NCBI GenBank assembly: GCA_965247895.1
Contig: OZ252046.1
Span: 951,140 to 1,015,139, forward strand
DNA from: Dehalococcoidia bacterium
Lineage (GTDB): Bacteria > Chloroflexota > Dehalococcoidia > UBA2979
Reading direction: 5' to 3'
DNA: 64,000 nt
Each line of letters opens with the position of its first letter. Within the stretch, counting starts at the first letter, position 1. Shown piece after piece: positions 1 to 38,006 of the stretch. The notes below the pieces were generated by a model. It was given only the letters and a program-made list of their open reading frames with translations, was not told the DNA's origin and made no database searches. Made by a program: the position numbers and the translations under genes.

Positions 1-3000
1 TCACGATGATGGTGTCGCTGAGTGTCCCTGGGTCGGTGGCGGTGACGGTGACGGTGTGCGAGGGCACCGTCTCGTAGTCGAACATGGGGTTGGCGGCCAC
101 CCGTATCTGGCCGGTTGCGCTGTCCACCGTGAACTTGTCGGAGCCCGTCAGCGTGTAGCTCAGATTCCCTGCGTCCTCGGCGTCGTCGGCCACCACCCGC
201 TCCCCGACGGTGGCAGTGGCCCCTGCGTCCTCGGGCACGGAGCGCGTCGTGTTCGCAGCGGGGAACTCCGGGGCGGTGTTCACGGGCGGCTTGGCCTGGA
301 CACGGTTTCGCGAGACCGCGGAGATACTTATGTCCGTGTCCGGGCTGTATCCGTCCCTATACGTGGCGGTGGCGCGCAGGTAGTAACCGATGTCGCCTAC
401 GACCGGCGTGTAGCTGTCAGCCGTGGCGCCGCTGATCAGCTGCCAGCCGCTCCCCCGGCTCGTCGACCGCTCCCACTTCCACGTCGTCGACTGCACGATG
501 TCGGCGTCGGTCAGTGTCGCCGTGAACGGCGCCTCCACCTGCGGCTGCGGCGAGGAGAGGCCGAGCATCGCCCGTTCGTTCACATTCGTGACATCCACCG
601 TGACCCTCGTGACCGCTGAGCCGTTCGCATCCGTGGCCGTGACCTCCACTTCGTAGCTGTCCTTGGTCTCGTAGTTGAGGGCGCTCTCCGTCCGCAGCTG
701 GCCGCTGGTGGCGACGATCGCGAACGATGAGGCGTCGGCTCCGCCGAGCGTGTACGTGGTCGAGCCGTCCGTGGCCGCGGCCGTAACCGGCGGGCCGATG
801 TTCCTGTTCCGCGACGTGTTCTCCTCGACGGTGCGCGTGGTGCGGACGGACTGGAGCGCGAAGGACAGAGTCGCGATCGGCTCCGTCGAGAATTTGCCCG
901 TTCCCCGGATGCTCGTGATGACCCCCTGCGGGTCGGTGGCCGCGTTGCCCAGGGAGAACCCCGTGCCTTCCTCCGTGCCCGCGTCCCACGGGTAGAGGTT
1001 GACGGTGTGGGAGCGCAGCCAGCGGCCGCTGCTGTTGAGCAGGGGCAGGCCGGAAACGCCCACGAACCAGTCGGGGCTGGGGGCGACCATCGTGACCAGC
1101 GTGACGCGCGGGTGGGTGGTGGCAAGCGTGGGGTTGAGGCTCTGTGTGGCCGTTACCCCGCCCGTGTCCGTGCTGCCCTGGAACAAGCTGAGCGCCGTGG
1201 CCGGGTTGGCGCCGATGGCTGTCTGCACCTCGCTCCGCAGGGTCGTGATCGTTCCGTCCTCCGCCATCGACTCGACCCCGGCGCTGGCCGTCCCGCCGCT
1301 CGCGAGGAAGCTCACGCCTGCGTTGTGGACGGCGCCGGCGAGGCGGGAGAAGTGCGCGCCGCCGGGAACGCCGTCAGGCGTGACCTTGGCGTACCACTTG
1401 CCCTCGAACTCGACGTCATAGGTCGCTGTCGATGGGAACGGCGCGACGGGATCGCTCGCCGGGGGGGTCAGCGAGGTGTCTTGCCTCGTACGGGTCACCG
1501 TCACGATGTAGGTCCTGGTGCTTCCGTTCGCGGCTGTCACCCTGATGGTGATGACGTTCTGGCCCACCGACGGGTTCACCTGGTAACCGTCGGCATTGGT
1601 GTCGGCGTCGACGCGACCTACGAGCGTAGCCACGGCACCGGCATCGTTCTCGCTCGCGGTCACCGTGATCCCCGTCACGGTGTAGCCGACGGATGCCGTG
1701 TACCAGGTGACCTCAGTGTCGAAGGAGGGGCTGAGCCTTGCCCCGCTCAGTGACAGCGCGCTCAGGGTGGCGTCCGCGGAGAGGGGGGTGCCTGTGCCCG
1801 TGTCCGACCAGTCCCCGTCGCCGGCGCTGTTGGCTGCCCGCACCTCCACGTCGTAGGAGACGCCGTTGGTCAGCCCCGCGATGGTGTATTCCAGGTCGCC
1901 CGAGGTCCAGGCGATCACTTCGTCCCAGTTGGCGTCGGCCTTGTCCGTCGCGTCGGTGCGGATTGAGTGCACGTCGTAACGGGTAATGGCGGCGCCGCCG
2001 TTGGAGGCGGGCGCGCTCCATTGCACGGCGAGCTCCCCGTCGCCGGCGGTCACGGAAGAAACCCCCGGCACTCCGGGCACCACGGGGGGCTGCATCTGCT
2101 CGGCGGCCTCGCCGATGTTGTTATAGTTTTCGGCAGAGACGCGCACACTCGAGCCGGGCGCTGTGGCAGTCGTCTGGTGGGCGAGAGTCCCCGAAACATC
2201 GGTGATCTTCGCGGAACGGGTGTCGTCGTACTCCTGGTCCGCATCCTTCCACTCCACCCGGTAGGCGGTGATGGCTTCACCCCCGTCGTAGGCCGGCTTC
2301 TCCCAGGTCACCCGGCCGTCCGCGGCCAGGGCGACCGCTGCGGGAGCCTGGGGGACGCAGCCGCCGGCTCGCCATGGATTGCGGGTGGGGGCCCTGCCGT
2401 ACAGGGCCTCCGTTGCTCGCTGCCGATCGCAGTAGGCCCCGAATGCGTTCCGCAACGCGAACGCAGCCGCGTGTTTCCATGCCCCCACGCCCTTGACATC
2501 AGTCCACACCTTTTCGAGGTCGTACTGCTTGTCGTATTTCGGATCCGTTGAGGTGTCATAGGGAACGGTGTCGTCCTCGTAGGTTGTGTCGAACCAGGCC
2601 GGCATTGTCTTGGCGAGGACGCTGTTGATCATGGTCAGTGTAGTTGCAGAGGGCGTATCTCCTGTTCTGGAACAAGGAGGGAAGTACGTCGAAAGAGAGC
2701 TTGCCACGGTGCCGCTCTCGACAGCATCGGCATAGAGCTCATGGATCTGACAGCCGGTTCCGCCCGCTACGAGGTCTGCAAAGTAGAGCCACGCGATGCC
2801 GCGACCCTCGGAGTCTCGTCCCATAAGCCGCGCTCCGGCATTGTAGACGTGGCCCAGCTCATGGAGATAGACGCCTGTGTCAGATGCGGCGTTATTACCA
2901 ATGTCAACGCGAGTGACTTCACAGGCAACCAGAGTCCCTATTCTTCTCGAACTGCAATCCAGGAAGACCCTGCTGTCGGAGACTGTTGCACCAATTGGAG

Positions 3001-3510
3001 TGTTTAAACGCCGCATGTAATCGTACAGCTCGCGCACCCATGGGTCGTCTGCTTCGTATGCGGCAACAACCCCCGTCTTCAGGAAGTGACCTCGTTGCTC
3101 ACTTTCGGACTGGGTTTTGAACCCAGGCGTACGAAGCTTGACATCGGTACCCAGGGTGACGAGGAGGGCGTAGAGCGTGTCCGCAGTCAGTCCCGTCAAG
3201 TCGAAGGTGACGGAGGTGCCGTTGGTCATCTTGCTCGTCACCAGGTCGGCGCCGTCGGGCTGGGCCCTGTACTTGAGAGCAACCGTCTGCTCCGTCGAGC
3301 CGGGATTGGCGATGGTGACTGTCACGCTCGCCGTCGTTCGTCCGGTCTCGCCGAACTCCACGCCGGTGATGTTCCCGCTTGGCGCAGCCGGCAGGTCGTA
3401 GGCATAGATCTTGACCTTCGCCTCATCGCCCACCCAGAGGGTGTTCCCGCTGGAGGTGACGCCCCACGGCGCCCCATTCTCGCGGGCCAGTTGTATCTCC
3501 GGGGGGGCTG
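1..3510 (-). CDS. C-terminal portion of giant secreted surface protein A: FN3-like modules, HEXXH Zn-metallopeptidase-like region, spondin_N-like domain, cadherin-like modules. The 3' end lies beyond the window start. Same gene as 3322..5499 after a +1 frameshift at the G7 run 3501..3507.
   Basis: Minus-strand frame with codon first bases at positions congruent to 1 mod 3 is open from 3510 to position 1. Hand translation gives ...PEIQLARENGAPWGVTSSGNTLWVGDEAKVKIYAYDL (a propeller blade)...VYLHELGHVYNAGARLMG (HEXXH)...ATYDVEFEGKWYAKVTPDGVPGGAHFSRLAGAVHNAGVSFLASGG...SPDWFVGVSGLPLLNSSGRWLRSHTVNLYPWDAGTEEG (spondin_N-like)...YETVPSHTVTVTATDPGTLSDTIIV (cadherin-like). It is absent from the ORF track because there is no stop codon inside the window. 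Confidence 0.6.
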
Positions 3511-5499
3511 CCGATCGCCGACACCGGCGGTACCCAGGGCATAGGCGAATATCCTGTCCAGGGCGTCGTCGGCGACCCACAGCGCGGACCCGTTGGACCA
3601 CATGCCCCTGGGTTGCATGTAGGAGGTGGCGAGGTCGCCCTCTTTCGTTGTGTCGCGCGCTCCGAAGGTACCGGTGCTGCCGATGTTGTAGGCGAAGACG
3701 TGCTCCCGGACGTGGCCTGCTATCCACATCGTGGTTCCGTCGGACCACACCCCCCTCGGGTGGCCATTCTCGGGCGCTATCTCGAAGCTCTTCGCGGTGT
3801 CGAGCCTTCCGAAGGGGCTGCCTGAGAGCGAATACGCGTACACCTTGTCGTCCTGCTCGTCGACTACCCACAAGGTGCCGCTGTTCACGTAGACGCCGCG
3901 TGGAGCGGCGTTCTCGCCGTCGAGCACGAAGCTCTTCGAGCTGACGAAGCCCTTGTTGCTCAGGTTGTAGGCGTCGACGCGGTCGCTGCCCCCCGTGGCC
4001 CTGTCGTACACGACCCACAGGGTGGCGCCGTCGGTCCCGATGCCGCGCATCTGCCCGATCCCGACCAGGGCAAGGTCACGCTGCGCCGGCCGCACCAGCA
4101 GCTCCGCGGTGACCTCGGTCCCGTCGGCGAAGGTGCTGTCGAGTGAGGCCTGGACCACGAGGCGCGGCGCCGATCGCGCCCCGGAGAGCGTGAAGTCGAT
4201 GGTCTGTCCGCCTGTCGCGTTGGTCGTGGACCATGCATCGGTGAAGGGCTCGCGGTAACGCAGGTACACCGTCTTGCTGGGGTTGGGGTAGCTGATGTCG
4301 GCGCGAATGGTGGCGGCGGTCTGCGTAGCGGAGACGAGGGACAGCGCGGATACGCTCGGGTCCGGCTTCGGCTGGTAGTAGGCGAAGACCTTCGATCCGC
4401 TGCGGCGGCCGTCCAGGATCCAGAGATACTCCCCGTCTCCCCACATGTCGCTGGCTCCCAGTGAGTCGACAGCATTGGCGTGAGCGGTGTTCAGCGGGAT
4501 ATTCAGGTGCGGCAGCGGGATGCCGACCCTCAGATCGAGGGCGTAGAGCATCCGGTCCCGGCCGTCGACCGCCCACATCGTCTGACCGTCGGACCAGATG
4601 CCGCTCAGGGCGTAGCTGCCGTCCTTGTGCAGGGTGATGTCCTTCGCCGTGTCGCGTCCGCCATACGGGCGTTCGTAGGCATAGGCGTCGTGCTGAGGGT
4701 AAACGACCCAGAACGTGTCGCTGTTGGCCCAGATGCCCTTCGCGTCGGAGTGGCCGCGGGCGAGCCTGAATTCCCTGCTCGATTGCCGGGAGCCGTCCGA
4801 AAGCTGGTAGGCGTAGGCTCGGAATTGGGACCGGTCCACGGCGTACAGGTAGGTCCCGTCGGACCAGAGGCCCCCTGGGCTGTGGTTGCCGAGGCCTGGG
4901 GTGATGTCTTTCGCCGTGTCGCGGTCGCCGTGCTGGGCGGCCGGTGTGCGCTTGTAGGCGAGAATCGTCGTCGAAGTGCCAAGAGTAAACCCGTCGGAGA
5001 TGACCCAGAGCGTGTTGGCGTCTCCCGCGATGCCCGTGGGAAGGTCGCTTCCGGCCAACGTGATGTCGAGATGCGCCGGCCGGTTCTGGAAGGTGCTGCT
5101 CTCGACGCCGGTCGCGAAGGTCGAGTCCGCCGACACCTCGATGTCGTAGTAGGCGTTCGCCGCCAACGCCGTGAGGCTGAAGGTCACGTCCCCCGCTTGC
5201 GACGCGTTGGCGGTCCACAACAACGCTCCCCAGTCGTCCTTGTCATGGAGAGAGAGCCGCAGATAGAACGTTCCCATCCCACTGACCGTCGCGGTGGCGG
5301 TCGCGGTGGTCCGGGCGCTGCTCGCCACTGTGCCGGCACTCACGGTGGCGGTCTGGGCGGAGACCGATGCGACACGACCACTCAGGGCTGCAAACACGAC
5401 AACAAGCAGCACAATGCCTATCAGGGTTGCGGAACGCGGCAGAGTGGCGCTCATACCCGCGCTTCGTGCCGGGAGCAGCCCACCGTGTTGCCGGAGCAC
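3322..5499 (-). CDS. N-terminal portion of giant secreted protein A: signal peptide plus at least 10 divergent WSDG-type (PD40/TolB-like) beta-propeller blades. The C-terminal ~60 aa of this ORF are out-of-frame junk after the G7 frameshift.
   Basis: 725-aa ORF in the track. N-terminus MSATLPRSATLIGIVLLVVVFAALSG...AQTA looks like a signal peptide. Repeats such as GIWSDGQTMWAVDGRDRMLYALDL, GVWSDGTTMWIAGHVREHVFAYNI and GMWSNGSALWVADDALDRIFAYAL. The Arg-rich tail ...DRQPPRRYNWPARMGRRGASPP follows the G7 run. Confidence 0.7.
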   Translation of the reverse strand: MLRQHGGLLPARSAGMSATLPRSATLIGIVLLVVVFAALSGRVASVSAQTATVSAGTVASSARTTATATATVSGMGTFYLRLSLHDKDDWGALLWTANASQAGDVTFSLTALAANAYYDIEVSADSTFATGVESSTFQNRPAHLDITLAGSDLPTGIAGDANTLWVISDGFTLGTSTTILAYKRTPAAQHGDRDTAKDITPGLGNHSPGGLWSDGTYLYAVDRSQFRAYAYQLSDGSRQSSREFRLARGHSDAKGIWANSDTFWVVYPQHDAYAYERPYGGRDTAKDITLHKDGSYALSGIWSDGQTMWAVDGRDRMLYALDLRVGIPLPHLNIPLNTAHANAVDSLGASDMWGDGEYLWILDGRRSGSKVFAYYQPKPDPSVSALSLVSATQTAATIRADISYPNPSKTVYLRYREPFTDAWSTTNATGGQTIDFTLSGARSAPRLVVQASLDSTFADGTEVTAELLVRPAQRDLALVGIGQMRGIGTDGATLWVVYDRATGGSDRVDAYNLSNKGFVSSKSFVLDGENAAPRGVYVNSGTLWVVDEQDDKVYAYSLSGSPFGRLDTAKSFEIAPENGHPRGVWSDGTTMWIAGHVREHVFAYNIGSTGTFGARDTTKEGDLATSYMQPRGMWSNGSALWVADDALDRIFAYALGTAGVGDRQPPRRYNWPARMGRRGASPPAGTPSGWAMRRRSRSMPTTCRLRQAGTSPAWSSARPDERRRA

Positions 5500-6329
5500 A
5501 TCGCCCGGCTCAGGGCAGCCTGCGCCCAGGCGCGATCCGGCGGGTGGCTAGCGAACAGCGAGCCGGCCAGGCTCGCGGCCCCTGGCACCGGAAGCCGTCC
5601 GGCGAGCACGCCACGGAGCAGCACGGCGCGGAAAGTGGAACCGGTGATCTGCGCCGAAGTCACGACGGTTCCCCCCCGCAAGAAGCGCCCCCGTGGGCGC
5701 CTAGCTAGGGCAACCTAGCACGGTCGTGTCGTTCAATCGATGCATATCCGTGATAAATACGTGAAACTTTGCTCAAACCCGTGAAGTTTTCGGTGAATCA
5801 AGTCCCATTGATGCTCACCACCAGCCTTTCACGGCACGCGCCCAGGGAACTCCAGCAGCGCATAGGCCAACCCGAAGGTGAGGGCGAGTCCTCCTCAGCC
5901 CGTCTCCGGCACGCTTGCTAGTGGCTGCTCTCCGGGCGCTCGGGTCGCGATCACAGGGGTGGTGCAGCGGCACGCGCACCGGGACGACAACGATGTCCAT
6001 GTCCGGACGCTGCACCCTGTCATCGATGTCGTGGAACGTCAGCTCGGCGCCGAATTGGGCGGCCGAGGCCCTCGCCGTGTCTTCGTGTGCCATGCAGACG
6101 GCCTTGAGCTCGTAGTCAGGGCAAAGAGGCCAGCGCTGGCACGCAGCACTCGATACGGTCACGCGGCTGGGCGCGGTGGACCCGGGGCTCGTGGCCATCG
6201 AGGCGGGCCGCATCGCCGACGGCCGCCGGGAGAGCGGCGTCGGGAATAGGACAACTTGGGCGGTTCGACCGCCCGAAGCCGAACCTGGCCGGCTACGACG
6301 CGCTGCTCGCCGCGAGCACGGGATGAGCA

Positions 6330-6513
6330 CGCCCATGACCGAGCAGGCGGCCGCGCTGACGCCCCGCACACTTGACTTCACTCGCTGCGGCATACGGCCG
6401 GGAGCCAGTCGATCCTGGCCGGCACCGACCTGCTGACGGTTTCGCGGCGGCTCGGGCAAGCGTCCGCGTCGTTCACGATGGATATCTACGGGCACATGTT
6501 GCCGGGGCAATAG
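6330..6513 (+). pseudogene. Degraded C-terminus of a tyrosine recombinase (phage integrase): box II and catalytic Tyr region, disrupted by an indel
   Basis: One frame reads ...LHSLRHTAGSQSILAGTDLLTVSRRLGQASASFTMDIYGHMLPGQ* (HxLRH...Y motif), ending at a stop at 6511..6513. The preceding ALTPRTL segment is in another frame, with a stop between them. Removing a 14-nt stretch would restore ALTPRTLRHTAGS. Confidence 0.5.
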
Positions 6514-6551
6514 GGCCCTGCGGCCGAGGCGCTTGACCACTTGATCAGGTG

Positions 6552-6617
6552 AATGGCCCCAGAATGGCCCCAGATTGGCCCCAGATTGGCCCCAGGATGG
6601 CCCCAGGATGGCCCCAC
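6552..6617. repeat. 11-bp tandem repeat, 6 units (aatggccccag / attggccccag / gatggccccag), between the integrase remnant and the tRNA-Glu 3' end
   Basis: Read directly at 6552..6617. Confidence 0.8.
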
Positions 6618-6664
6618 TCGAGCCGACTGAACGAACGCATGCGGCCGAAAAGGCCTGTGAACGT

Positions 6665-6740
6665 TGGTGCCCCCAAGGGGGTTCGAACCCCTGTTTCCAC
6701 CTTGAAAGGGTGGCGTCCTGGTCCCCTAGACGATGGGGGC
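6665..6740 (-). tRNA. tRNA-Glu (anticodon TTC)
   Basis: Reverse complement of 6665..6740 is GCCCCCATCGTCTAGGGGACCAGGACGCCACCCTTTCAAGGTGGAAACAGGGGTTCGAACCCCCTTGGGGGCACCA. 7-bp acceptor stem, anticodon loop CTTTCAA, T-loop GGTTCGAA, 3' CCA. Confidence 0.9.
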
Positions 6741-6919
6741 GAGCGCTGATCGAGCATACCAAGGACCGGGCGCAGTTGCCCCCGCACGCCGCGAGGCCGC
6801 TTCGACCGCGCGACGCCCCTCGGAATCTCCCGCACTGGGTGCGTAGCTCGCGCGCTGCGGCACTGGCGCGCACGCGCCGCGTGCCGCACCATTCGAGGCT
6901 CTAAGCCAGGAGCAGCCAT

Positions 6920-8386
6920 ATGACAAGCGATCCGATCCTTCCGCAAGCCCGCATCGTCGATGAGTACGAGAGCCCCATATCGGGGTATCAGCTGCTGATG
7001 ATGGTGCGGATCGCCAACTCGCCCGGCAAGCTCGGCATGCTCGCCACCACGATCGGTGAGTGCGGCGCAGACATCGGCGCGATCGACATCTACGAGGCGG
7101 GCCCCAACCACATGGTCCGGGAGTTGCGGGTCTTCTGCCGCGACGCCGTGCATGCCCGCGAGGTCGTGGACCGGGTTGACGCCCTCGACGGCGTGGAGGT
7201 GCAGCGCGCCTCGGACCGCACCTTCCAGCTGCATCGTGGCGGCAAGATCGAGATCGCGAACAAGGTGCACATCCGCACCAACGCCGAGCTCTCCCATGTC
7301 TACACGCCCGGCGTCGCGCGCGTCTCGATGATGGTGCACGACGAGCCGGACTCGGTGTGGGCGCTGACCGCGCGCCGCAATACCGTCGCCGTCGTCACCG
7401 ACGGCACCGCGGTGCTCGGCCTCGGCGACATCGGCCCGGAGGCGGCGATGCCGGTCATGGAGGGCAAGTGCATGCTCTTCAAGAGCTTCGGCTCGATCGA
7501 CGCCTGGCCGATCTGCCTCGACACCAAGGACCCCGACCGCATCGTGGACATCGTCGAGGCGATCGCGCCGGGCTTCGGCGGCATCCTGCTCGAGGACATC
7601 TCCGCCCCACGCTGCTTCGACATCGAAGAGCGGCTCGTGGAGAAGCTGGACATCCCGGTCTTCCACGACGACCAGCACGGCACCGCCGTCGTGGTCCTCG
7701 CGGCGCTGATCAACAGCCTCAAGATCGTCGGCAAGAAGCCCGAGGACCTGAAGGTCGTCGTGCTCGGCGTCGGCGCCTCCGGGATCGCCTGCGCTCGGAT
7801 CATGCTCAACTACGGCGTGCGCGACATCATCGGCTTCGACCGCACCGGGGCCGTCTACCCCGGCCGCGAGAACCTGAACCCGGCGAAGGAGTGGTTCGCC
7901 GAGCACACCAACCCGGACGGCTTCAGCGGCGACCTGACGCAGGCGATGCGCGGAGCGGACATGTTCCTCGGGCTGTCGGGCCCGCGCATGCTCTCGCCGG
8001 AGCAGGTGGGCAGTATGGCCGACGACGCGATCGTGCTGGCACTCTCCAACCCGGAGCCGGAGATCATGCCGGAGCTGATCCAGGGCAAGGCCCGCGTGAT
8101 CGCCACCGGGCGCTCCGACTACCCGAACCAGGTCAACAACGTGCTCTGCTTCCCCGGGCTCTTCCGCGGCGCCTTCGACGCCGGCGCGAAGCGCATCACC
8201 GAGGAGATGAAGCTCGTCGCCGCCCACGCCATCGCCGAGGTCATCCCCGACGACCAGATCAACGAGGACTACATCCTGCCCTCGGTCTTCAACGAGGCGG
8301 TCGCGCGCAACGTCGCCGCGGCAGTCGCCGCGGAGGCGCGCCGCACCGGCAACGTCCGCCAGCCCGGCTCGCGGGTCTTCGTCTAG
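6920..8386 (+). CDS. NAD(P)-dependent malic enzyme with N-terminal ACT domain
   Basis: 488-aa ORF with motifs VYTPGVA, VVTDGTAVLGLGDIG and VLGVGASGIA. Confidence 0.9.
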   Translation: MTSDPILPQARIVDEYESPISGYQLLMMVRIANSPGKLGMLATTIGECGADIGAIDIYEAGPNHMVRELRVFCRDAVHAREVVDRVDALDGVEVQRASDRTFQLHRGGKIEIANKVHIRTNAELSHVYTPGVARVSMMVHDEPDSVWALTARRNTVAVVTDGTAVLGLGDIGPEAAMPVMEGKCMLFKSFGSIDAWPICLDTKDPDRIVDIVEAIAPGFGGILLEDISAPRCFDIEERLVEKLDIPVFHDDQHGTAVVVLAALINSLKIVGKKPEDLKVVVLGVGASGIACARIMLNYGVRDIIGFDRTGAVYPGRENLNPAKEWFAEHTNPDGFSGDLTQAMRGADMFLGLSGPRMLSPEQVGSMADDAIVLALSNPEPEIMPELIQGKARVIATGRSDYPNQVNNVLCFPGLFRGAFDAGAKRITEEMKLVAAHAIAEVIPDDQINEDYILPSVFNEAVARNVAAAVAAEARRTGNVRQPGSRVFV

Positions 8387-8392
8387 CCTGTC
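8111..8392 (+). repeat. Left copy (~282 bp) of an identical direct repeat. It is the native 3' end of the malic-enzyme gene; the right copy is at 10816..11097.
   Basis: Nucleotide identity from gctccgactacccgaaccaggtcaac... through ...gtcttcgtctag. The two copies diverge immediately after the stop codon. Confidence 0.85.
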
Positions 8393-8574
8393 CAGTCTCG
8401 TTAGATGCGGCGGGCGCCGTCCCTCGCACGCCACTTGATCCCGAGCCGGATCGGGCTCCTTCGCGATGTCGAACGCGACCCGCGCCACTACAACTCAGAC
8501 TGCGCCCATACCAGCCGCTCGAATGGTCCCGACACGCAGCCGGATGTGTCGCCGGATTCTGGAGATAGGGCAGC

Positions 8575-9843
8575 CTAGCTGCCGCGCAGCGTACGGAGCA
8601 GGTCGCCCATCCTGGGTGGCTGGCCGTACGCCAGCAAGTAAGCCCGGAAGAGGCGGGCCGTGAGCCAAACGACGATCGCCACGCTGAGGGAGAGGACAGC
8701 GAGACTAACGAAGACCTCCAAGCCGTCCATGCCACCGAGACTCAGCCGCATGAGGCTCGCCATTGGGGCAGTAATCGGGACGAAGCTGAGCGCCCTCGCA
8801 AGCGTCCCGTCGGGGTCATCCAGCAGGGCGGGCAGGAACCACATCGGAGCGATAGCAGGCAGCATCACGAACGCGGTGATGCTCCCCGCCTGCTGTTGGT
8901 TGGTGGTGACCGCCCCGATGGCAGCCAGCAACGTGCCAATGAGAGCGTAACCAAGGAGGAAGTAGGCAAACGCAATAAAGAGCCACCCGGCCGAAGGTAC
9001 ATGCGTCAACTCGGAGGGCGCCCCGATCATGCGGCCGAGTGCGAGTAGGAAACCGACGCCAGATACGGCCCAGACTGCCACCTGCAAGAGGCTCGCGGCT
9101 CCCAGCCCGATGAGCTTTCCGAGCATCAGATGCTCCGGCTCGATCGAGGAGAGCAACACCTCCATGATGCGGTTCTCCTTCTCCTCGGACAGACCTTGCA
9201 ACAGGTAGCCAGACGCGGTGAGCGCCGACACGACGAACAATAAGCTCACAGCGACGAAGAGCAGGCTGTCGGCCACGTCAGAGTCCTCATCGGCGGGCGC
9301 ACCCGACTCGGTCACTTCATCAATCACGAGTCGATAGGGCGTGATGATGCGCTCGATCCGCTCCGAGTCGACCTGTCCGGATGTCAGGTTCTCGACGACG
9401 AATCGGTGAAGAGCGCCATCCCGTCGGCCGGAGCCGAACAACCCGGCGCTCTCCTCCTGAACCTCCACCACCGTCCCCGTCTCCAGGTAGTCTGCGGGAA
9501 ACACGAAGAGCCGCTCGATCCGTCCTTCAAGAAGCGCGCCTGTGGCTGTCTGCCGGTCCGGGTACGCCGTGAAGACCGTGCTGCCCTGCCTCTGGAACCT
9601 GGTGAAGTGCGGCTGGCCGTCCTCGCCAGTTGTGAGGTCGACGTAGCCGAACATGAACGTTTCGGGGGGAATAGCGGAAGGAGTGTCCTCTTCGGACGTG
9701 TCAGACCTCACCGTCTGAAATACGGCGGCGCCGACGAGGCCGAGTATTGCCAGGACGGGGACTGAAGCGACGAAGATGCGGTAGGCGAGTCGGCCGAGGG
9801 TGACGGAGAACTCGTGCCGCGCGACGAGCCATGTCTTACGCAT
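8575..9843 (-). CDS. ABC-2 family transporter permease
   Basis: The ORF 8575..10050 carries a 69-aa out-of-gene N-terminal extension. The likely start is ATG at 9843 (MRKTWLVARHEF...), which overlaps the ATPase stop within ATGCGTAA (translational coupling). About six transmembrane segments. Confidence 0.8.
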   Translation of the reverse strand: MRKTWLVARHEFSVTLGRLAYRIFVASVPVLAILGLVGAAVFQTVRSDTSEEDTPSAIPPETFMFGYVDLTTGEDGQPHFTRFQRQGSTVFTAYPDRQTATGALLEGRIERLFVFPADYLETGTVVEVQEESAGLFGSGRRDGALHRFVVENLTSGQVDSERIERIITPYRLVIDEVTESGAPADEDSDVADSLLFVAVSLLFVVSALTASGYLLQGLSEEKENRIMEVLLSSIEPEHLMLGKLIGLGAASLLQVAVWAVSGVGFLLALGRMIGAPSELTHVPSAGWLFIAFAYFLLGYALIGTLLAAIGAVTTNQQQAGSITAFVMLPAIAPMWFLPALLDDPDGTLARALSFVPITAPMASLMRLSLGGMDGLEVFVSLAVLSLSVAIVVWLTARLFRAYLLAYGQPPRMGDLLRTLRGS

Positions 9844-10771
9844 GACGGTCCTCGACGACTCGAAGGAAGATCTCCTCCAGGCTCGGCGTTGCAAACTCGT
9901 ACCGGTCAATCTTCGCGCCGCGGTCGAGCAGTGTCCGCAGCACCGCCTCCGGGGGGTGGCCGCTTGCAAGTTTGAGCACGTATCCGGAACCCTCCCGCCG
10001 GGACCCGAGCACTCCGTCAATCGCCTCCGACGCCCGGTCGCTCGCGACAAAGACCTCGCTACCAGCGAAGCGGCGCTTGATCTCGGTGAGAAGGCCTTCG
10101 AGCACGAGGCGGCCGTCGTCGACCATCAGGATGCGGTCGCACAGTTCCTCGACGTCCGTCATCTGATGGGTTGAGAACATGATGGCGACGCCTGCGGCAC
10201 GCCGCTCAGCGACGATGTCCTTCATGAGTCGCACGTTGATCGGGTCCAGCCCGCTGAACGGTTCATCGAGTACGACGAATGCGGGATCATGGATGAGCGT
10301 CGCCGCGAACTGCACGAGTTGGCCGAGTCCCCGGCTGAGTTCGCGGACCTTCTTGTCCCGGTGCTCCTCGAACCCGAGACGTTCGAGGAGTTCGTTGGCA
10401 CGGCGTAGAGCGGGTTCCCGGGAGACACCTCTGAGTTCGGCCAGATAGAGAAGGTTCGGGATGACCCGGAGATTGCGGTAGAGGCCGCGTTCTTCCGGGA
10501 GGTAGCCGATACGTTCACGGGTTTCCGGGGTAACGGCGGCACCGAATATCGCCACATCCCCAGCGTCCGGCCGGATGATGTCGAGGAGCATGCGGATGGT
10601 AGTGGTCTTGCCGGCGCCGTTCGGGCCAACCAGTCCGATGATCTCGCCGGGCCGCACGGACAGGGAGACATCCTGTACCGCTATCCGGTCGCCGAACCGC
10701 TTCCACAGGCCGGTGGCCTGGACGACGGGAGTAGTCGCCGGAGTCATTGCCATAGACCGGGATCGTAGCAC
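9836..10771 (-). CDS. ABC transporter ATP-binding protein
   Basis: Walker A GPNGAGKTT, ABC signature LSRGLGQ, Walker B VVLDEP. Confidence 0.85.
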   Translation of the reverse strand: MLRSRSMAMTPATTPVVQATGLWKRFGDRIAVQDVSLSVRPGEIIGLVGPNGAGKTTTIRMLLDIIRPDAGDVAIFGAAVTPETRERIGYLPEERGLYRNLRVIPNLLYLAELRGVSREPALRRANELLERLGFEEHRDKKVRELSRGLGQLVQFAATLIHDPAFVVLDEPFSGLDPINVRLMKDIVAERRAAGVAIMFSTHQMTDVEELCDRILMVDDGRLVLEGLLTEIKRRFAGSEVFVASDRASEAIDGVLGSRREGSGYVLKLASGHPPEAVLRTLLDRGAKIDRYEFATPSLEEIFLRVVEDRHA

Positions 10772-10815
10772 GGGGCCATAGCTGTGGTGCGTCGGGGCAC
10801 GCGCTCTCCAACGGC

Positions 10816-11091
10816 CGCTCCGACTACCCGAACCAGGTCAACAACGTGCTCTGCTTCCCCGGGCTCTTCCGCGGCGCCTTCGACGCCGGCGCGAAGCGCA
10901 TCACCGAGGAGATGAAGCTCGTCGCCGCCCACGCCATCGCCGAGGTCATCCCCGACGACCAGATCAACGAGGACTACATCCTGCCCTCGGTCTTCAACGA
11001 GGCGGTCGCGCGCAACGTCGCCGCGGCAGTCGCCGCGGAGGCGCGCCGCACCGGCAACGTCCGCCAGCCCGGCTCGCGGGTCTTCGTCTAG
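10816..11091 (+). pseudogene. Duplicated 3' fragment of the malic-enzyme gene (last 81 codons, identical to 8111..8386). This is the right copy of the direct repeat.
   Basis: ORF 10846..11091 encodes MLCFPGLFRG...RVFV, identical to the malic-enzyme C-terminus. No upstream gene body is present. Confidence 0.8.
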
Positions 11092-11099
11092 GCTGTCGC

Positions 11100-11400
11100 C
11101 CCCCCGAGGGCGCTCCGATCCCCTCTCCCCTGGCGGGAGAGGGTTAGGGTGAGGGGGACTCCGAGGCAGATCGCGTGTCGCCTGCCGGGGGGCTGCGCCC
11201 CCCACACCCCATCCCGGACGAGCGCGCTGCGCGGCTCCGGCCCACCCACCCGCCCTCGGATGTTCTTTCTGTGGGGGCTCCGCCCCCACGCCCCCGCCCG
11301 GATCGGCAGCCGGAACACAGCCTCGAGGGCGCGCCTTCGGATCCCCTCTCCCGCGAGGGGAGAGGGAGCCGGAGCGCCCTCGGAACGGGGTTTTCGCAAA
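11100..11400. repeat. Two copies of a REP-like GC-rich palindromic element (cccctctccc-N4-5-gggagagggg cores inside longer imperfect palindromes)
   Basis: First copy: cgagggcgctccgatcccctctcccctggcgggagaggg. Second copy: cgagggcgcgccttcggatcccctctcccgcgaggggagagggagccggagcgccctcgg. Confidence 0.5.
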
Positions 11401-15223: not shown

Positions 15224-15297
15224 TGGGGACTCGTCTAATGGTAGGACAGCTGACTCTGGATCAGTAGGTCGGGGTTCGAATCCTCGGTCCCCAGCCA
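15224..15297 (+). tRNA. tRNA-Gln (anticodon CTG)
   Basis: TGGGGAC acceptor stem, anticodon loop CTCTGGA, T-loop GGTTCGAAT, discriminator G, then CCA. 74 nt. Confidence 0.85.
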
Positions 15298-15490
15298 ATA
15301 CGCCGTATACGATTTCGGGGCCGTACTGGACAAGCTGTCCATGAACGCTGTCCGGTACGGAGCGCGGGCGCAGGGGGTAGGAGCCGCCCGGACGAGCTAG
15401 AAGAGCGAGTCTCGTTCAACGAGCAGCCGCGACTGGGGAGGTCGATATGGAGAGCTTGCTTAGCTGCTGCACGACTGAGGTGCTGGCACA

Positions 15491-17122
15491 GTGAGCACAA
15501 TAGACGGCGCTATAGACCTCACTATACCTGGGCTATCTGGAAAGCCTTTGAGCATCACAATACAAACTGGTGAATCCATCTTTGTTATGGGTGCGAATGG
15601 AACAGGTAAATCAACTCTCATACATCACCTCAATAACGAGCACAACGCGCGAGCGCGATTCATACCTGCTAATCGTCAAACATGGATGGAATCTAACTCC
15701 GTTACTATGAACTCGCGCGACAAGGAACAGACAGAACGGAATATAAGACAAGGGACCACCCGTGCTGACGCCCGGTTCCGCGACAACTATTCTGGCGCGC
15801 GAGTCAGCTTGTCCATAGCGGAGCTGCTGGCAGCTGAGGCCGCGCGAGATCACGACATCGCGATTGCGATTGATCGCGGGAAGCCCAAACGTGCGCGGAA
15901 GATATCAAGGAACCGTCCGTCGCACTTGAGAACGATTTCTTCGCTCTTACAGTCATCAGGTCTTCCAATCACAATAAGCGCTCACAATGGTGAGGAACTC
16001 CGAGCCGTCAAGCACGGACAAGAGTATAGTATCGAACAACTATCGGACGGTGAGCGCAATGCCTTTTTACTTGCCGCAACCATCCTCACTACCGAACAAG
16101 GAACGCTTTTCCTGTTGGATGAGCCTGAGAGGCATCTGCATAGGTCCATTTCAGGAAGGCTGATTTCGTCGCTCATTGCGGAGCGAGCCGACTGTTCGTT
16201 TGTAATTGCCACACACGACATTACACTTCCGAGCAAGGAAGAGGATGCCAGAGTCATTCTCTTGACGGCTTGTCAATTCAGCAACGGGCAAGCTATCGGG
16301 TGGGATGCGAAGCTCCTTCCGCAGGGCGAAGCCATAGACGAGGATATCACGAGGGATATATTGAGCTCGCGCAAGAGGATTTTGTTCGTCGAAGGCGTGG
16401 ATGGTAGCCTCGATATTGAGCTCTACCGTATCGCCTTCTCCAGCGAGAACGATATTGACGTCGTGCCCAAGGGTGGGTATCCGGCAGTCGAATCTTCGGT
16501 TAGGGCGATCCGCGGGTCCGAAGCGCTCTATTGGATGGAAGCCTTCGGTATTATCGATCGGGATGGCCGCGCAGACGATGAAGTGTCAGCCTTACGCAAG
16601 ACTGGAGTGTACCCGCTGGAGGTGTACTCCGTGGAATCGATCTACTACCATCCAAAAATCCAGAGGGAGGTAGCGGAACACTTATACGAGAGCCCAGAGG
16701 ACAAGGTTACGGCAGCTCGCGCAGCCGCCATCGAAGAGATAGCCAAGCAAAAGGAAGGCTTGGCCACGCGGGCTCTTGAGAGGATGGTGCGCCGAGCTAT
16801 CCTCGAACGAATCCCTGGACGAGAGGCTATCTCGGCAGAACTGTCTGTCCGAATTGAGATCGACATGACGGACCTACCACAAGATCCGCGTGCAGATCTG
16901 GAGCGAGCGATCGACGACAACGATCTCGAGTACATCATGAAGCACTACCCGATTAAGCCGGGCAACGTCCGGGGAGTGATCGCGCGACAACTCGGGTTCA
17001 CGAACCGGACGGCATACGAGCGGAATGTCCGCAAGGTGCTCCGTCACAGGCCTCAAGCGTTGGAGTTCGTCAGGTCCTTGCTTGGAGGCCTCCCTTCGGA
17101 CCTTACCGCTTCAGGGTCATAG
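15491..17122 (+). CDS. Fused ABC-type ATPase + TOPRIM-type nuclease domain protein (OLD / PARIS-AriAB-like), on a low-GC islet
   Basis: Walker A GANGTGKST, ABC signature LSDGERNAF, Walker B LFLLDEPERHLH, H-loop ATHD. The C-terminal half has TOPRIM-like motifs ILFVEGVDG (conserved Glu) and GIIDRDGR (DxD). GC is about 45% against about 70% for the flanks. GTG start. Confidence 0.8.
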   Translation: MSTIDGAIDLTIPGLSGKPLSITIQTGESIFVMGANGTGKSTLIHHLNNEHNARARFIPANRQTWMESNSVTMNSRDKEQTERNIRQGTTRADARFRDNYSGARVSLSIAELLAAEAARDHDIAIAIDRGKPKRARKISRNRPSHLRTISSLLQSSGLPITISAHNGEELRAVKHGQEYSIEQLSDGERNAFLLAATILTTEQGTLFLLDEPERHLHRSISGRLISSLIAERADCSFVIATHDITLPSKEEDARVILLTACQFSNGQAIGWDAKLLPQGEAIDEDITRDILSSRKRILFVEGVDGSLDIELYRIAFSSENDIDVVPKGGYPAVESSVRAIRGSEALYWMEAFGIIDRDGRADDEVSALRKTGVYPLEVYSVESIYYHPKIQREVAEHLYESPEDKVTAARAAAIEEIAKQKEGLATRALERMVRRAILERIPGREAISAELSVRIEIDMTDLPQDPRADLERAIDDNDLEYIMKHYPIKPGNVRGVIARQLGFTNRTAYERNVRKVLRHRPQALEFVRSLLGGLPSDLTASGS

Positions 17123-35655: not shown

Positions 35656-37826
35656 TCAGGAGCCTCCCGTGCCCGCACTCGGGAGCTCGGGCGCCTTGAG
35701 CGCGCACTCCTCGCGCAACCAGGACGTGACGCCATCGGCCGACACCAGGAGCCAGCCCACGCAGCGCCCAACTCCCTGACCGAGTACCTCGACCTCCGTG
35801 CCGTCCAGCCAGCCGCCGACGAGTCGTGCACCATCGGCGCAGTCGATACGGTGCGCGACACCCCTGCCGCCCGTATTCCCGATGATCCTCAGAGCCTCCG
35901 GCCCCACTGCCGCAGGCGCCGCGAATTCGACCAGATACGTCCCCCGCACCCACGAGCTGGCGCCGTCCGCCTGGACCCACAGCCAGCCCACGCAGCGCCC
36001 AACCCCGTGCGCGAGCGCCTCGACCTGCGTGTCGTCCAGCCAGCCGCCGCCGTCCGAGCGTCGCGCATCATCGGCACAGTCGTCGCGCTGCGAGACGCCG
36101 TCGCCGCCGGTATTCCCAATCAGCCACCAGATCGTCGGGGCCAGCGCGGGAACACCGCCCGAGTCGACGACCTGCTCGGCGCGCGCCCACGAGCTGACGG
36201 CGTCCGCCCGCACCCAGAGCCAGCCCGTGCAGCGCCCAACCCCCTGAGCGAGAATCTCGACCTCCGTGCCGTCCGGCCAGACGCCGCCGTCCGAGCCTCG
36301 CGCATCCTCGGCACAGTCGCTGCGGTGCGAGACGCCCTCGCCGCCCGTGTTGCCGATCAGCCTGCGTGGCCCCGGATCCGGCGGCTCGACCGGCTCCGCT
36401 GTCTCGACCGGCTCCGCCGGCTCGTCCGGCTCCAGCGTCCCGTCCGGCTCCGCTGTCTCGACCGGCTCCGCTGTCTCGACCGGCTCCGCTGTCTCGACCG
36501 GCTCCGCTGGCTCGTCGGGCTCCGCTGGCTCGCCGGGCTCCGCTGGCTCGTCGGGCTCCGCTGGCTCGTCGGGCTCCGCTGTCTCGACCGGCTCCGCTGT
36601 CTCGACCGGCTCCGCTGTCTCGACCGGCTCCGCTGTCGCCACCGGCTCCGCTGTCTCGACCGGCTCCGCTGTCTCGACCGGCTCCGCTGTCTCGACCGGC
36701 TCCGCTGTCTCGACCGGCTCCGCCGTCTCGACCGGCTCCGCTGCATCTTCGCGGCCTGGAGGGTGCATGATTCGCACTCGGTAGACACGCGAGCGATGAC
36801 CATCTTCGGAGGTGACGGTGACCGTGATCTCCGCGATCTCCTCCAGCGCCAGCTGATGCCCGTTCTCCGGATTCCCATCTGCGTCATCGGGAGCGATCAC
36901 CACGGTCGCTCCCGGCCGCATGGCGCGTGCATCAATGACTACGCGGCCGGTCGCGACCCCTTCGTAGCCGGTGCGGCTGCTTGTGAAGTCGCCAATCTGG
37001 ACGCCGACCAGTCTCAGCAGGGCGAGGCGGGTGTCCGCGCTCGCGCGCAGCTCGGTGGTGAAGTAGACGCGGTCGTCGGCGAGGTCGCCGACGTAGATCA
37101 GGCCTCCATCGGACCAGAGACCTCGCGTCTCTCCGTTCTCGTTGCGGACCCTGAACTCCTCGTCACGGACGCGCACGAGGTCGTCTCCCTGCAACTGATA
37201 CGCGAACAACCTCGCGCTGCCCCTCTCGGAGACCAGGATCACGTACCCATCCGACCAGAGCCCGTGCGGGTCGTTGTTGGCCGGATCGAGCGAGTAGACG
37301 CCGAGCGTTTCCCCGGTCGCAGGTCGTAGCTGAAGAGACTGTCCGTGCCGCCATCCAGCACCCACATCGTGTCGCCGTCGGACCAGATGCCTCGGGCGTG
37401 GGCGTTGCGTTCGTCGAGCCTGATGTCCCGCTCCGGAAGCGGCGTCCTGGTCTCCATGTCGTAGGCGAAGACCCGGTCCTGCCCGCTGTCGGAGACCCAG
37501 GCCGTCTCGCCGTCGGACCACAGGCCGCGCGGGGCCACGTTGCGCCTGGCGAGCTTGAAGTCGAGCTCCTCGAGGCGCTCGCGGCTCTCGATGTCGTAGG
37601 CAAAGACGCCGTCGTCGGCCCCGACTCCGTTCCAGGCTACCCACAGCGTCTCGCCGTCGGACCAGAGTCCCGTCGTGACGCCGCAGCCGGGTTGAGGAGG
37701 GTCAAGACTGCAGGTGGCTCCCGAGGCTGCCGGAACCGCGCCACCCAGATGCGCGAACAGGAGAACCAGAGCAACTATTGCCGAGCTGGCCGCAAGCCGG
37801 GCATACGTCCTCGCCTCGACCGCCAT
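35656..37826 (-). CDS. Giant secreted surface protein B: signal peptide, WSDG beta-propeller blades, 18-bp-unit acidic tandem repeat (PVETAE)n, three C-terminal SH3b-like Cys-containing domains. A single-base frameshift near 37305..37325 splits it into track ORFs 37239..37826 and 35656..37644.
   Basis: N-terminus MAVEARTYARLAASSAIVALVLLFAHLGG. Blades GLWSDGETLWVAWNG...FAYDI and GIWSDGDTMWVLDGGTDSLFSYDL. At the junction one frame reads ...DSLFSYDLRPGKR and the other ...RPATGETLGVYSLDPANNDPHGLWSDG. C-terminal repeats IGNTGG[DE]GVS[HQ]R.DC..DAR.S.GG.W.DGTEVE.L..GVGRC.GWL.V.ADG..SW.R. Confidence 0.65.
36376..36750. repeat. About 20 tandem copies of an 18-bp unit (gtctcgaccggctccgct and variants) encoding (PVETAE)n/(PDEPAE)n inside gene B
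   Basis: Read directly. Coding low-complexity repeat, not CRISPR (units are contiguous, no spacers). Confidence 0.8.
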
Positions 37827-38006
37827 GATTGCAGCCCTTCCTGTCCGGCTTCGGGAGACGCGACACGCACACCCCTCGACCGGTGTACGGGGTGAGGATT
37901 CTAAAGGATCGGCGAGACGCAGCGCGCGGACTCCGGAAAACGCAATTGTCGATGCGTGAGGCGAATCGTGGGCGCGGCACGACCTCTGCCCGGATCGCGG
38001 CCCTCG

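Follow-up and report, generated by a model that had tools for sequence, protein, structure and literature searches.

In the lambda attP, P'3-P'2-P'1, H' and the core succeed the int stop codon in this order, and in the attP of mycobacteriophage L5 the arm-type sites lie in adjacent pairs. Sublocation classes of tRNA-gene integration were reportedly distinguished by Williams in 2002. Genomic islands integrate in tRNA genes, and the gene is regenerated (Islander, PMC4383910). Arm-type sites are required in the attP of an ICE, ICEMlSymR7A, which has five IntS sites; winged-helix recombination directionality factors (RDFs) and BldC occupy direct repeats in which successive protomers are one DNA turn apart (PMC11963761).

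The locus described here lies in a 64,000-nt stretch of DNA (the window, to whose numbering all positions refer), in which the end of a tyrosine-integrase gene, a tandem 11-bp repeat and a short spacer lead up to the 3' end of a tRNA-Glu gene (Table 1). We interpret 6359-6740 as the probable remains of a dead attachment junction of an integrative element in tRNA-Glu(UUC), carrying a truncated integrase and an array of putative arm-type sites; the probability that we attach to this interpretation is roughly 0.85.

Table 1. Features at and beside the tRNA-Glu junction, in window coordinates.
Feature	Position	Strand	Basis
Gfo/Idh/MocA oxidoreductase N-terminal pseudogene fragment	5959-6171	minus	Pfam PF01408, E 7.4e-5, profile 24-77/120
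Tyrosine-integrase pseudogene stub, codons ~319-382 of a 382-aa family	6359-6552	plus	Pfam; alignments to L081 and L111/L118
Six tandem 11-bp units, TGGCCCCA(G/C)nn	6551-6616	plus	TRF
48-bp spacer, apparently element-derived, from array to tRNA 3' end	6617-6664	plus	Strong divergence between strains; missing from L119
Intact tRNA-Glu(UUC)	6665-6740	minus	ARAGORN (anticodon TTC); Rfam tRNA, 61.3 bits
3'-terminal ~37 nt of this gene (6665-6701, minus), putative recombination core, …GGTGGAAACAGGGGTTCGAACCCCCTTGGGGGCACCA			

The integrase stub and the DNA joined to it

ARAGORN placed the CCA-encoding 3' end of the tRNA-Glu gene at 6665, pointing left. Rfam agreed on the gene, as a preliminary description of this DNA had it, and a scan of 5400-7000 with Rfam gave nothing else credible. 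To the left of the tRNA, the plus-strand frame from 6379 reads HSLRHTAGSQSILAGTDLLTVSRRLGQASASFTMDIYGHMLPGQ, a stop, GPAAEALDHLIR and a second stop; up to the first of these, a TAG, it runs HSLRHTAGS...MDIYGHMLPGQ. The stub matched Pfam PF00589 at profile positions 130-168 of 172 (E 7e-4, 19.8 bits); with no more than ~45 aa to score, it stays under the gathering threshold. It matched 1,790 phage records with a best E of 3e-6, and among the matches listed the annotations were integrases. Aligned with residues 326-381 of a 382-aa integrase from a metagenome contig (L081), the stub shows 80% identity (45/56), and the alignment reads straight through the window's TAG at 6511. Together with the PF00589 match, it upholds the integrase C-terminal remnant of the preliminary description. 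The closest database proteins were integrase tails of 39-72 aa at 72-79% identity, in a short-query search that favoured short database entries. The occurrence of ~60-aa stubs in several metagenomes as a conserved small protein was considered and rejected on account of stops, frameshifts and differing start codons.

The C-termini of intact family members read ...GQQGPAAEALDHLIG. The TAG at 6511-6513, which is CAG in relatives, is therefore a mutated CAG, and the gene originally ended with the TGA at 6550-6552, right where the repeat begins; the residues of the stub beyond the TAG are the family's normal GPAAEALDHLIR. The distance of 150 bp from integrase to tRNA given earlier applies to the TAG, which is 151 bp away, but the real TGA is 112 bp away. 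The frame is indeed broken as had been described, but the repair proposed then, removal of 14 nt, was rejected, because alignment with L111/L118 identifies the break as a 1-nt deletion at 6377/6378: TPRTLD and, across the break, HSLRHT of the window align with VPRTVNCHSLRHT of the relatives, TPRTLD corresponding to VPRTVN. The catalytic residues left are H-x-x-R (HSLRH) and Tyr (DIYGH) only; deletion has removed the first Arg as well as the Lys region, and the second conserved His has been lost (LGH to LGQ). Judged from its sequence, then, the stub is a tyrosine recombinase (phage integrase), but a pseudogene without a complete catalytic set. The frameshift and stop calls may include long-read assembly errors; the truncation itself is present in nine independent assemblies.

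No integrase similarity was found upstream of ~6359, so ~318 of the 382 codons have been lost by truncation. Within 5800..6520, where likeness to phage integrases had been anticipated, similarity was accordingly confined to the stub, and the stretch 6176-6358, with which the boundary signature described earlier begins, is not integrase and adjoins the Gfo/Idh/MocA fragment. A tblastn search of the 64 kb with an intact family integrase gave no match apart from the stub at E<0.01, and the island portion of the window holds no functional integrase gene, only the stub. The truncated integrase is now joined to the DNA of the Gfo/Idh/MocA fragment, of which six-frame reading suggested further decayed remains in other frames down to ~5815. 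Since the stub abuts an unrelated pseudogene, little of the original element can have escaped deletion or replacement. Farther left, the gene for a giant secreted cadherin/spondin/fn3 protein (giant protein A of the preliminary description) starts at 5454, and it is plausible that this protein is part of the island. The giant gene changes frame near 3550; split genes also occur in low-coverage long-read contigs of relatives.

The 11-bp array and intact members of the integrase family

The repeat scored 104 in TRF (period 11, 6.0 copies, 94% matches), and it is abutted by the integrase's original stop codon. Nowhere else in the 64 kb does a pattern of two units occur, and shuffling gave an expectation of 0. 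Close relatives have three units in 8/8 cases and six units occur only in the window genome, which makes the six a local expansion; the 6-unit repeat described earlier between integrase and tRNA is thus present, with its copy number particular to this genome.

The same motif recurs beside integrases elsewhere. On L082, an unrelated JGI contig, a family stub precedes a pair of TGGCCCCA units spaced by 11 bp, beyond which lies the 3' end of a tRNA-Glu(CUC). L081 and L120 have two units past the integrase stop, L081 also having three inverted units upstream, and in L121 two units are followed by a spacer, a tRNA-Met-like 3' fragment and two further units. The low-GC loci L085, L086 and L089 are arranged alike, a tRNA 3' fragment being flanked on either side by TTGACCCC or TTGACATC units. 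In all, TGGCCCCA was found in 11-bp tandem beside int genes or relics in L081, L082, L120, L121, L122 and L124-L126. Across 1.83 Mb of loci, chains of at least two TGGCCCCA-like units at 10-12 bp spacing occurred almost only beside int genes or relics of the family, and unit chains were placed likewise in further loci outside this set. A scan of IMG/VR for two units returned 11 contigs in about seven groups (GC 38-69%), most with more units nearby and several beside integrase genes. Irrespective of motif, an exact tandem 8-mer (10-12 bp period) was found within 150 bp after int in 16/27 family loci vs 19/897 control windows (2%; binomial p ~2e-20, at least nine different motifs, the 27 loci not all being independent, e.g. 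L094/095/097/098/099). From the recurrence of the motif beside integrases and this enrichment after int, the repeat is best read as a putative integrase-proximal arm of an attachment site, that is, as arm-type sites. A literature search for the motif TGGCCCCA found nothing relevant. The order of int and then array is not universal, since L122 and L125, the intact integrases closest to the stub, have one degenerate unit only after the stop; their well-formed arrays lie ~2 kb upstream, inverted and attached to another stub (an adjacent inverted scar).

That the units are functionless, a slippage-prone minisatellite that lies by chance between stub and tRNA, is highly improbable in our judgement. 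Such an origin would suit the variable copy number (3 vs 6) and the degenerate units of L112-L117, and the element is dead, so that the array is now without selection. It would not be expected to place the same 8-bp motif, with 11-bp phasing, beside integrases or their relics in unrelated contigs whose GC ranges from 38% to 69%, and chance pairs were rare in the controls.

Intact members of the family indicate what could have bound such an arm. On L081, a 321-aa integrase ORF is directly followed by a tail piece, and together these form a 382-aa integrase with one in-frame TAG, which scores 79.9 bits on PF00589; intact 382-aa relatives were found at 93% down to 48% identity. The N-terminus of the L081 integrase matched PF14657 (Arm-DNA-bind_4) with E 7.6e-4 and 19.5 bits, under the gathering score of 22.3. 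The most likely binder of the putative arm sites would be the N-terminal domain of Int, a region deleted from the window's own integrase copy. Upstream of the intact relatives lie a 51-aa ORF and an HTH_17 excisionase-like gene, and in 8/27 distant family loci a minus-strand tRNA is located ~95-245 bp past the integrase match. Convergence of int on a tRNA gene therefore appears, from these gene arrangements, to be the norm for the family. A search of IMG/VR with an intact integrase (P0138) found no relatives and hence no evidence that the element is a phage.

The HTH_17 gene overlaps int in intact family members, and a head-to-tail array of 11-bp units fits one DNA turn per protomer of polymerising RDFs. 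The array could accordingly be a binding track of the HTH_17 excisionase (the recombination directionality factor) and not of the integrase, the main alternative to our reading and one that we consider unlikely. L121 and L089 have arrays to either side of the core, and viral contigs contain several separated pairs; both patterns are typical of Int arm sites, while RDF tracks usually occupy one arm. Tandem repeats after int across at least nine motif types, and the sub-threshold match to an arm-binding domain in the L081 Int, likewise argue for integrase arm sites.

The junction in related strains

Relatives were available as long metagenome contigs, comprising eight loci with a malic enzyme 98-99% identical to that of the window (L111-L118) and one at 92% (L119). 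They came via protein search, the window's malic enzyme having no identical record; among GTDB species representatives the best malic enzyme was 60% identical, and tRNA-Glu/malic synteny was not found. A malic-enzyme match at 91% is named Chloroflexi.

The tRNA-Glu(UUC) gene occupies the same place in all of L111-L119, and its sequence is that of the window in 8/9 relatives, L116 being one base off (75/76). The scar was present in 8/8 close relatives. In L119, which carries glnE, phosphodiesterase, LPG synthase and YjeF_N genes here, glnE ends 66 bp from the tRNA and neither stub nor repeat is found; homology between the window and L119 begins at 6664, so that the island-side boundary coincides with the tRNA 3' end and L119 represents an empty site. 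The locus is a tRNA-gene island in the usual sense: the tRNA is intact, island DNA starts at its 3' end, and an island-free allele exists in the 92% relative. Comparison of the locus in relatives, which the preliminary description had proposed, in this way bore out its account of an element integrated at a tRNA with a decayed integrase, and the common int-tRNA layout agrees with it.

The left limit of homology to the window varies, at 6361 for L111 and L118, 6477 for L112, ~6585 for L113-L117 and 6664 for L119. The stub starts at codon ~313 in L111/L118, ~319 in the window, 359 in L112 and ~370 in L113-L117, each time beside different DNA. To its left are genes for TIR, MazG, UDG and reverse transcriptase in L111; an IS21 and a cadherin-like gene in L118; ADH, LPG synthase, YjeF_N and a tRNA-Glu(CUC) in L112; and a DDE transposase, a histidine kinase and a 4,053-aa cadherin/S8 protein in L113-L116, the sequence of L117 spanning only 483 bp left of the tRNA. 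The left flank of the window is unique, cargo is unrelated between strain groups, and at least five scar alleles with five different left flanks can be distinguished. Giant genes of the cadherin type, whole or in fragments, were located in several strains close to the scar or to intact integrases; the window's giant gene is ~66% identical to those of L113-L116, over 285 bp only.

Sequence identity changes abruptly at the junction. Between the window and L111 it is 98.6% in the malic gene, 99% in the tRNA-malic spacer and 100% in the tRNA, vs 71% in the 48 bp on the island side and 90% in the integrase stub, and the drop falls exactly at the tRNA 3' end. The 48-bp spacer is 67-75% identical between the window and its relatives and the spacer across the tRNA 92-99%; between allele groups the corresponding ranges are 64-88% and 92-100%. 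Stems were visible by eye in the 48-bp spacer of several alleles, but as a hairpin or terminator it folded no better than shuffles (z -1.4 to +0.9). Such a step argues for insertion of, or exchange with, different related elements and not for neutral decay of one insertion, and we infer from the differing scar alleles that integration or exchange probably recurred at the same attB.

The preliminary description had instead seen one fixed old island, and a single ancient insertion in neutral decay, with giant protein A as its original cargo, would account for the presence of the scar in all nine conspecific assemblies and its absence from the 92% relative, for the nested truncation depths and for the giant cadherin-type genes that are often nearby. 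This history is unlikely in view of the alleles themselves. Spacer and stub have diverged by 10-33%, the other side of the tRNA by about 1-6%, with the step at the tRNA 3' end; the five left flanks are unrelated, the giant genes share little, and related intact integrases circulate in the same samples, so that the claim of one fixed island is not sustained. Intact family integrases occur in the same samples as the scars, even on the L119 contig itself.

L122, L125 and L126 each contain a displaced scar. Its stub begins at codon ~344 and is followed by three repeat units, by the same spacer and by a tRNA-Glu 3' fragment of 37 nt, which is degenerate (28/37, manual count) and terminates at the anticodon loop. 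These displaced scars identify tRNA-Glu as the family's target here and suggest that the core spans the anticodon loop to CCA. The core for recombination would then be the 3'-terminal ~37 nt of tRNA-Glu (6665-6701, from the anticodon-stem 3' strand to CCA), with the crossover probably located at the anticodon loop. An anticodon-loop sublocation is known among tRNA-integrating elements, and the putative core fits it; the general principle is that of the Islander survey (PMC4383910). A second copy of the tRNA 3' end was found neither in the 64-kb window nor within 10 kb left of the tRNA in the eight relatives, and a distal junction, second array or P' arm for the window's island was likewise not found in window or relatives. 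The far-end copy may be located past the left edge of the window or have been lost by deletion.

Intact relatives in the same samples and genomes, displaced scar copies directly beside intact xis-int modules and the extreme diversity of scar alleles and cargo could also mean that the scar is still used in trans by circulating relatives, in the manner of a cis-mobilisable element, with turnover of neighbouring cargo as the result. We regard this as very unlikely. A new integration into the core would put variable DNA between array and tRNA, but the variable DNA of all strains begins within the stub or to the left of it. A matching distal site was not detected, and units are decaying in several strains.

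History of the junction and comparison with known systems

We favour a dead junction with the following history. An integrative element with a xis-int module would have inserted site-specifically into the 3' ~37 nt of tRNA-Glu(UUC), supplying the replacement 3' end of the tRNA. Its integrase would have read toward the tRNA and been followed by three tandem 11-bp TGGCCCCA units, the integrase-proximal arm, and a spacer of ~48 bp. Deletions or replacements from the island interior may then have left only the last ~64 integrase codons, which would have gained a frameshift, a nonsense codon and a substitution in the catalytic box, and slippage may have doubled the array from 3 to 6 units. The junction is unable to act on its own any longer. 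As a genomic-island scar it is ordinary, left at a tRNA-Glu hotspot that varies between strains of an uncultured Chloroflexota-like species, and the current understanding of site-specific integration is unchanged by it.

The scar locates one boundary of a region that varies among strains of an uncultured soil Chloroflexota-like species, and the tRNA-Glu 3' end provides a precise anchor from which the cargo of strains can be compared, including giant cadherin-type proteins, TIR/reverse-transcriptase defence genes and IS elements. The strain series also illustrates how islands erode from the inside while the bases beside an essential tRNA survive, and TGGCCCCA is a candidate arm-site motif for a large uncharacterised integrase family. 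A wider and improbable extension is that the TGGCCCCA 11-bp tandems might be a shared, undescribed arm-site (or excisionase-site) code of a broad integrase clade whose members range from elements of high-GC Chloroflexota to viral contigs with 38-69% GC, and that scars with array and tRNA-Glu core might still be substrates for circulating relatives. If this were true, tRNA-Glu would serve as a hotspot at which giant adhesin-like genes and defence systems are reshuffled among strains.

Compared with cis-mobilisable elements and tandem accretion, the scar is similar as an integrase-less remnant with one att junction and with displaced copies beside intact elements, but the locus has a single junction and shows no sign of mobilisation. 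With the actinomycete elements pSAM2 and SLP1 it shares, by layout, the xis (HTH_17)-int module, the convergence of int on a tRNA 3' end and short repeats on the int-proximal side; unlike in those elements, no replication or transfer genes were identified, and the host belongs to another phylum. Another likeness is to the genomic islands or prophages that tyrosine integrases have placed in tRNA genes, as catalogued in Islander. An integrase lies beside an intact, regenerated tRNA, island DNA starts at the exact tRNA 3' end, a relative has the empty site, the proposed identity block runs from the anticodon loop to CCA, and an integrase fragment is left by decay. The scar differs from them in its integrase, cut to ~64 codons, in its host, an uncultured high-GC Chloroflexota-like lineage, and in that the search for a tRNA fragment or direct repeat at the far end gave none. 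As for the lambda and L5 attP, the motif TGGCCCCA differs from theirs, the array is doubled to six units in a dead element, and the arm sites are putative. In other respects the arrangement corresponds: int reads toward the core, tandem ~11-bp direct repeats (ancestrally three) run from the stop codon, and a spacer of ~50 bp follows, then the core. The sub-threshold PF14657 match may mark an arm-binding N-terminal domain in the integrase family as well. At the sequence level, the locus and its relatives resemble the systems of heterobivalent lambda/L5-type integrases in having repeated candidate arm-type sites that flank the core.

Sequences flanking the integrase stub and a second tRNA-Glu gene

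A gene and a pseudogene fragment lie on the minus strand to the left of the tyrosine-integrase stub. In the giant secreted protein gene, the coding frame judged by GC3 shifts near 3550, and a low-GC stretch spans ~2400-3300. The shift is due either to a genuine frameshift or to an indel introduced in assembly. Giant genes related to it are present at ~37200-42600 in the same window. Between its promoter region and the stub sits an N-terminal pseudogene fragment of a Gfo/Idh/MocA oxidoreductase, in which the Rossmann glycine motif has decayed.

A second tRNA-Glu gene, tRNA-Glu(CUC), was located 3.5-5.6 kb to the left of tRNA-Glu(UUC) in L112, a metagenome locus with a 98-99% identical malic enzyme, and in L119, the 92% relative with a scar-free tRNA-Glu(UUC) site. 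YjeF_N and LPG synthase genes adjoin tRNA-Glu(CUC) in both, and the L119 copy is overlapped by a gene call for a serine recombinase. A tRNA-Glu(CUC) is likewise the site of the distant integrase stub in contig L082.

Coordinates of features in the window and in related contigs
Feature	Source	Position	Strand	Remarks
Giant secreted protein gene	window	2-5454	minus	Spondin_N, cadherin and fn3 domains; start MSATLPRS at 5454
Gfo/Idh/MocA oxidoreductase fragment	window	5959-6171	minus	decayed remains possibly to ~5815
Direct repeat, 298 bp	window	8095-8392; 10800-11097		98% identical overall; long identical core
Cassette between repeats	window	8393-10799		2.4 kb; lower GC; ABC-2 permease and ATPase genes
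Palindromic elements CCCCTCTCCC…GGGAGAGGGG	window	11114-11143; 11337-11366		intergenic
Palindromic elements CCCCTCTCCC…GGGAGAGGGG	L081	1960-2079
Palindromic elements CCCCTCTCCC…GGGAGAGGGG	L120	1320-1370
Palindromic elements CCCCTCTCCC…GGGAGAGGGG	L124	11180-11370
tRNA-Gln(CTG)	window	15224-15297		start of region 15224-17122
tRNA-Glu(CUC)	L112	6110-6186
tRNA-Glu(CUC)	L119	4070-4146
Tandem duplicated 51-aa/HTH_17/integrase modules	L122	10001-12614
Tandem duplicated 51-aa/HTH_17/integrase modules	L123	1568-4181

The malic-enzyme repeat and the tRNA-Gln site

Both copies of the 298-bp direct repeat correspond to the 3' end of the malic-enzyme gene, and the duplication leaves an orphaned malic C-terminal ORF at 10756-11088. 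The ABC-2 cassette enclosed by the repeats, within which no recombinase gene was found, is also carried by the close relatives L111-L117; the contig of L118 stops just beyond the malic gene. It is absent from L119, where a molybdopterin oxidoreductase gene directly follows malic enzyme.

After tRNA-Gln(CTG) the GC content falls sharply to 47-57%, and a fused AriA-AriB (PARIS-type) defence protein of 543 aa is encoded (PADLOC AriAB, E 2.4e-52). The gene following this tRNA is a different one in each relative compared (nucleoside deoxyribosyltransferase-like, PIN, HipA/DUF3037 and recombinase zinc ribbon genes). The site seems to be a second variable spot linked to a tRNA.

Duplicated integrase modules and short repeats

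In two contigs with integrases of the same family as the stub (L122, L123), the second integrase of the tandem modules is shortened to 314 aa. Just upstream lies a separate tyrosine recombinase of 461-469 aa, head-to-head with a displaced integrase stub.

Multi-unit arrays of the motif TGGCCCCA were found at 11-bp spacing in the IMG/VR viral contigs L127-L137, which range in GC from 38% to 69%. The arrays are often close to contig ends, and several adjoin integrase genes only 24-34% identical to the stub's family. By a rough estimate, a handful of chance matches to a 17-base pattern is expected in a collection of this size; the extra units next to the matches speak for real arrays.

The short palindromes CCCCTCTCCC…GGGAGAGGGG recur in intergenic DNA of the window and, in other contigs, immediately downstream of integrases of the family. 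They have the appearance of a REP-like repeat dispersed in this lineage.
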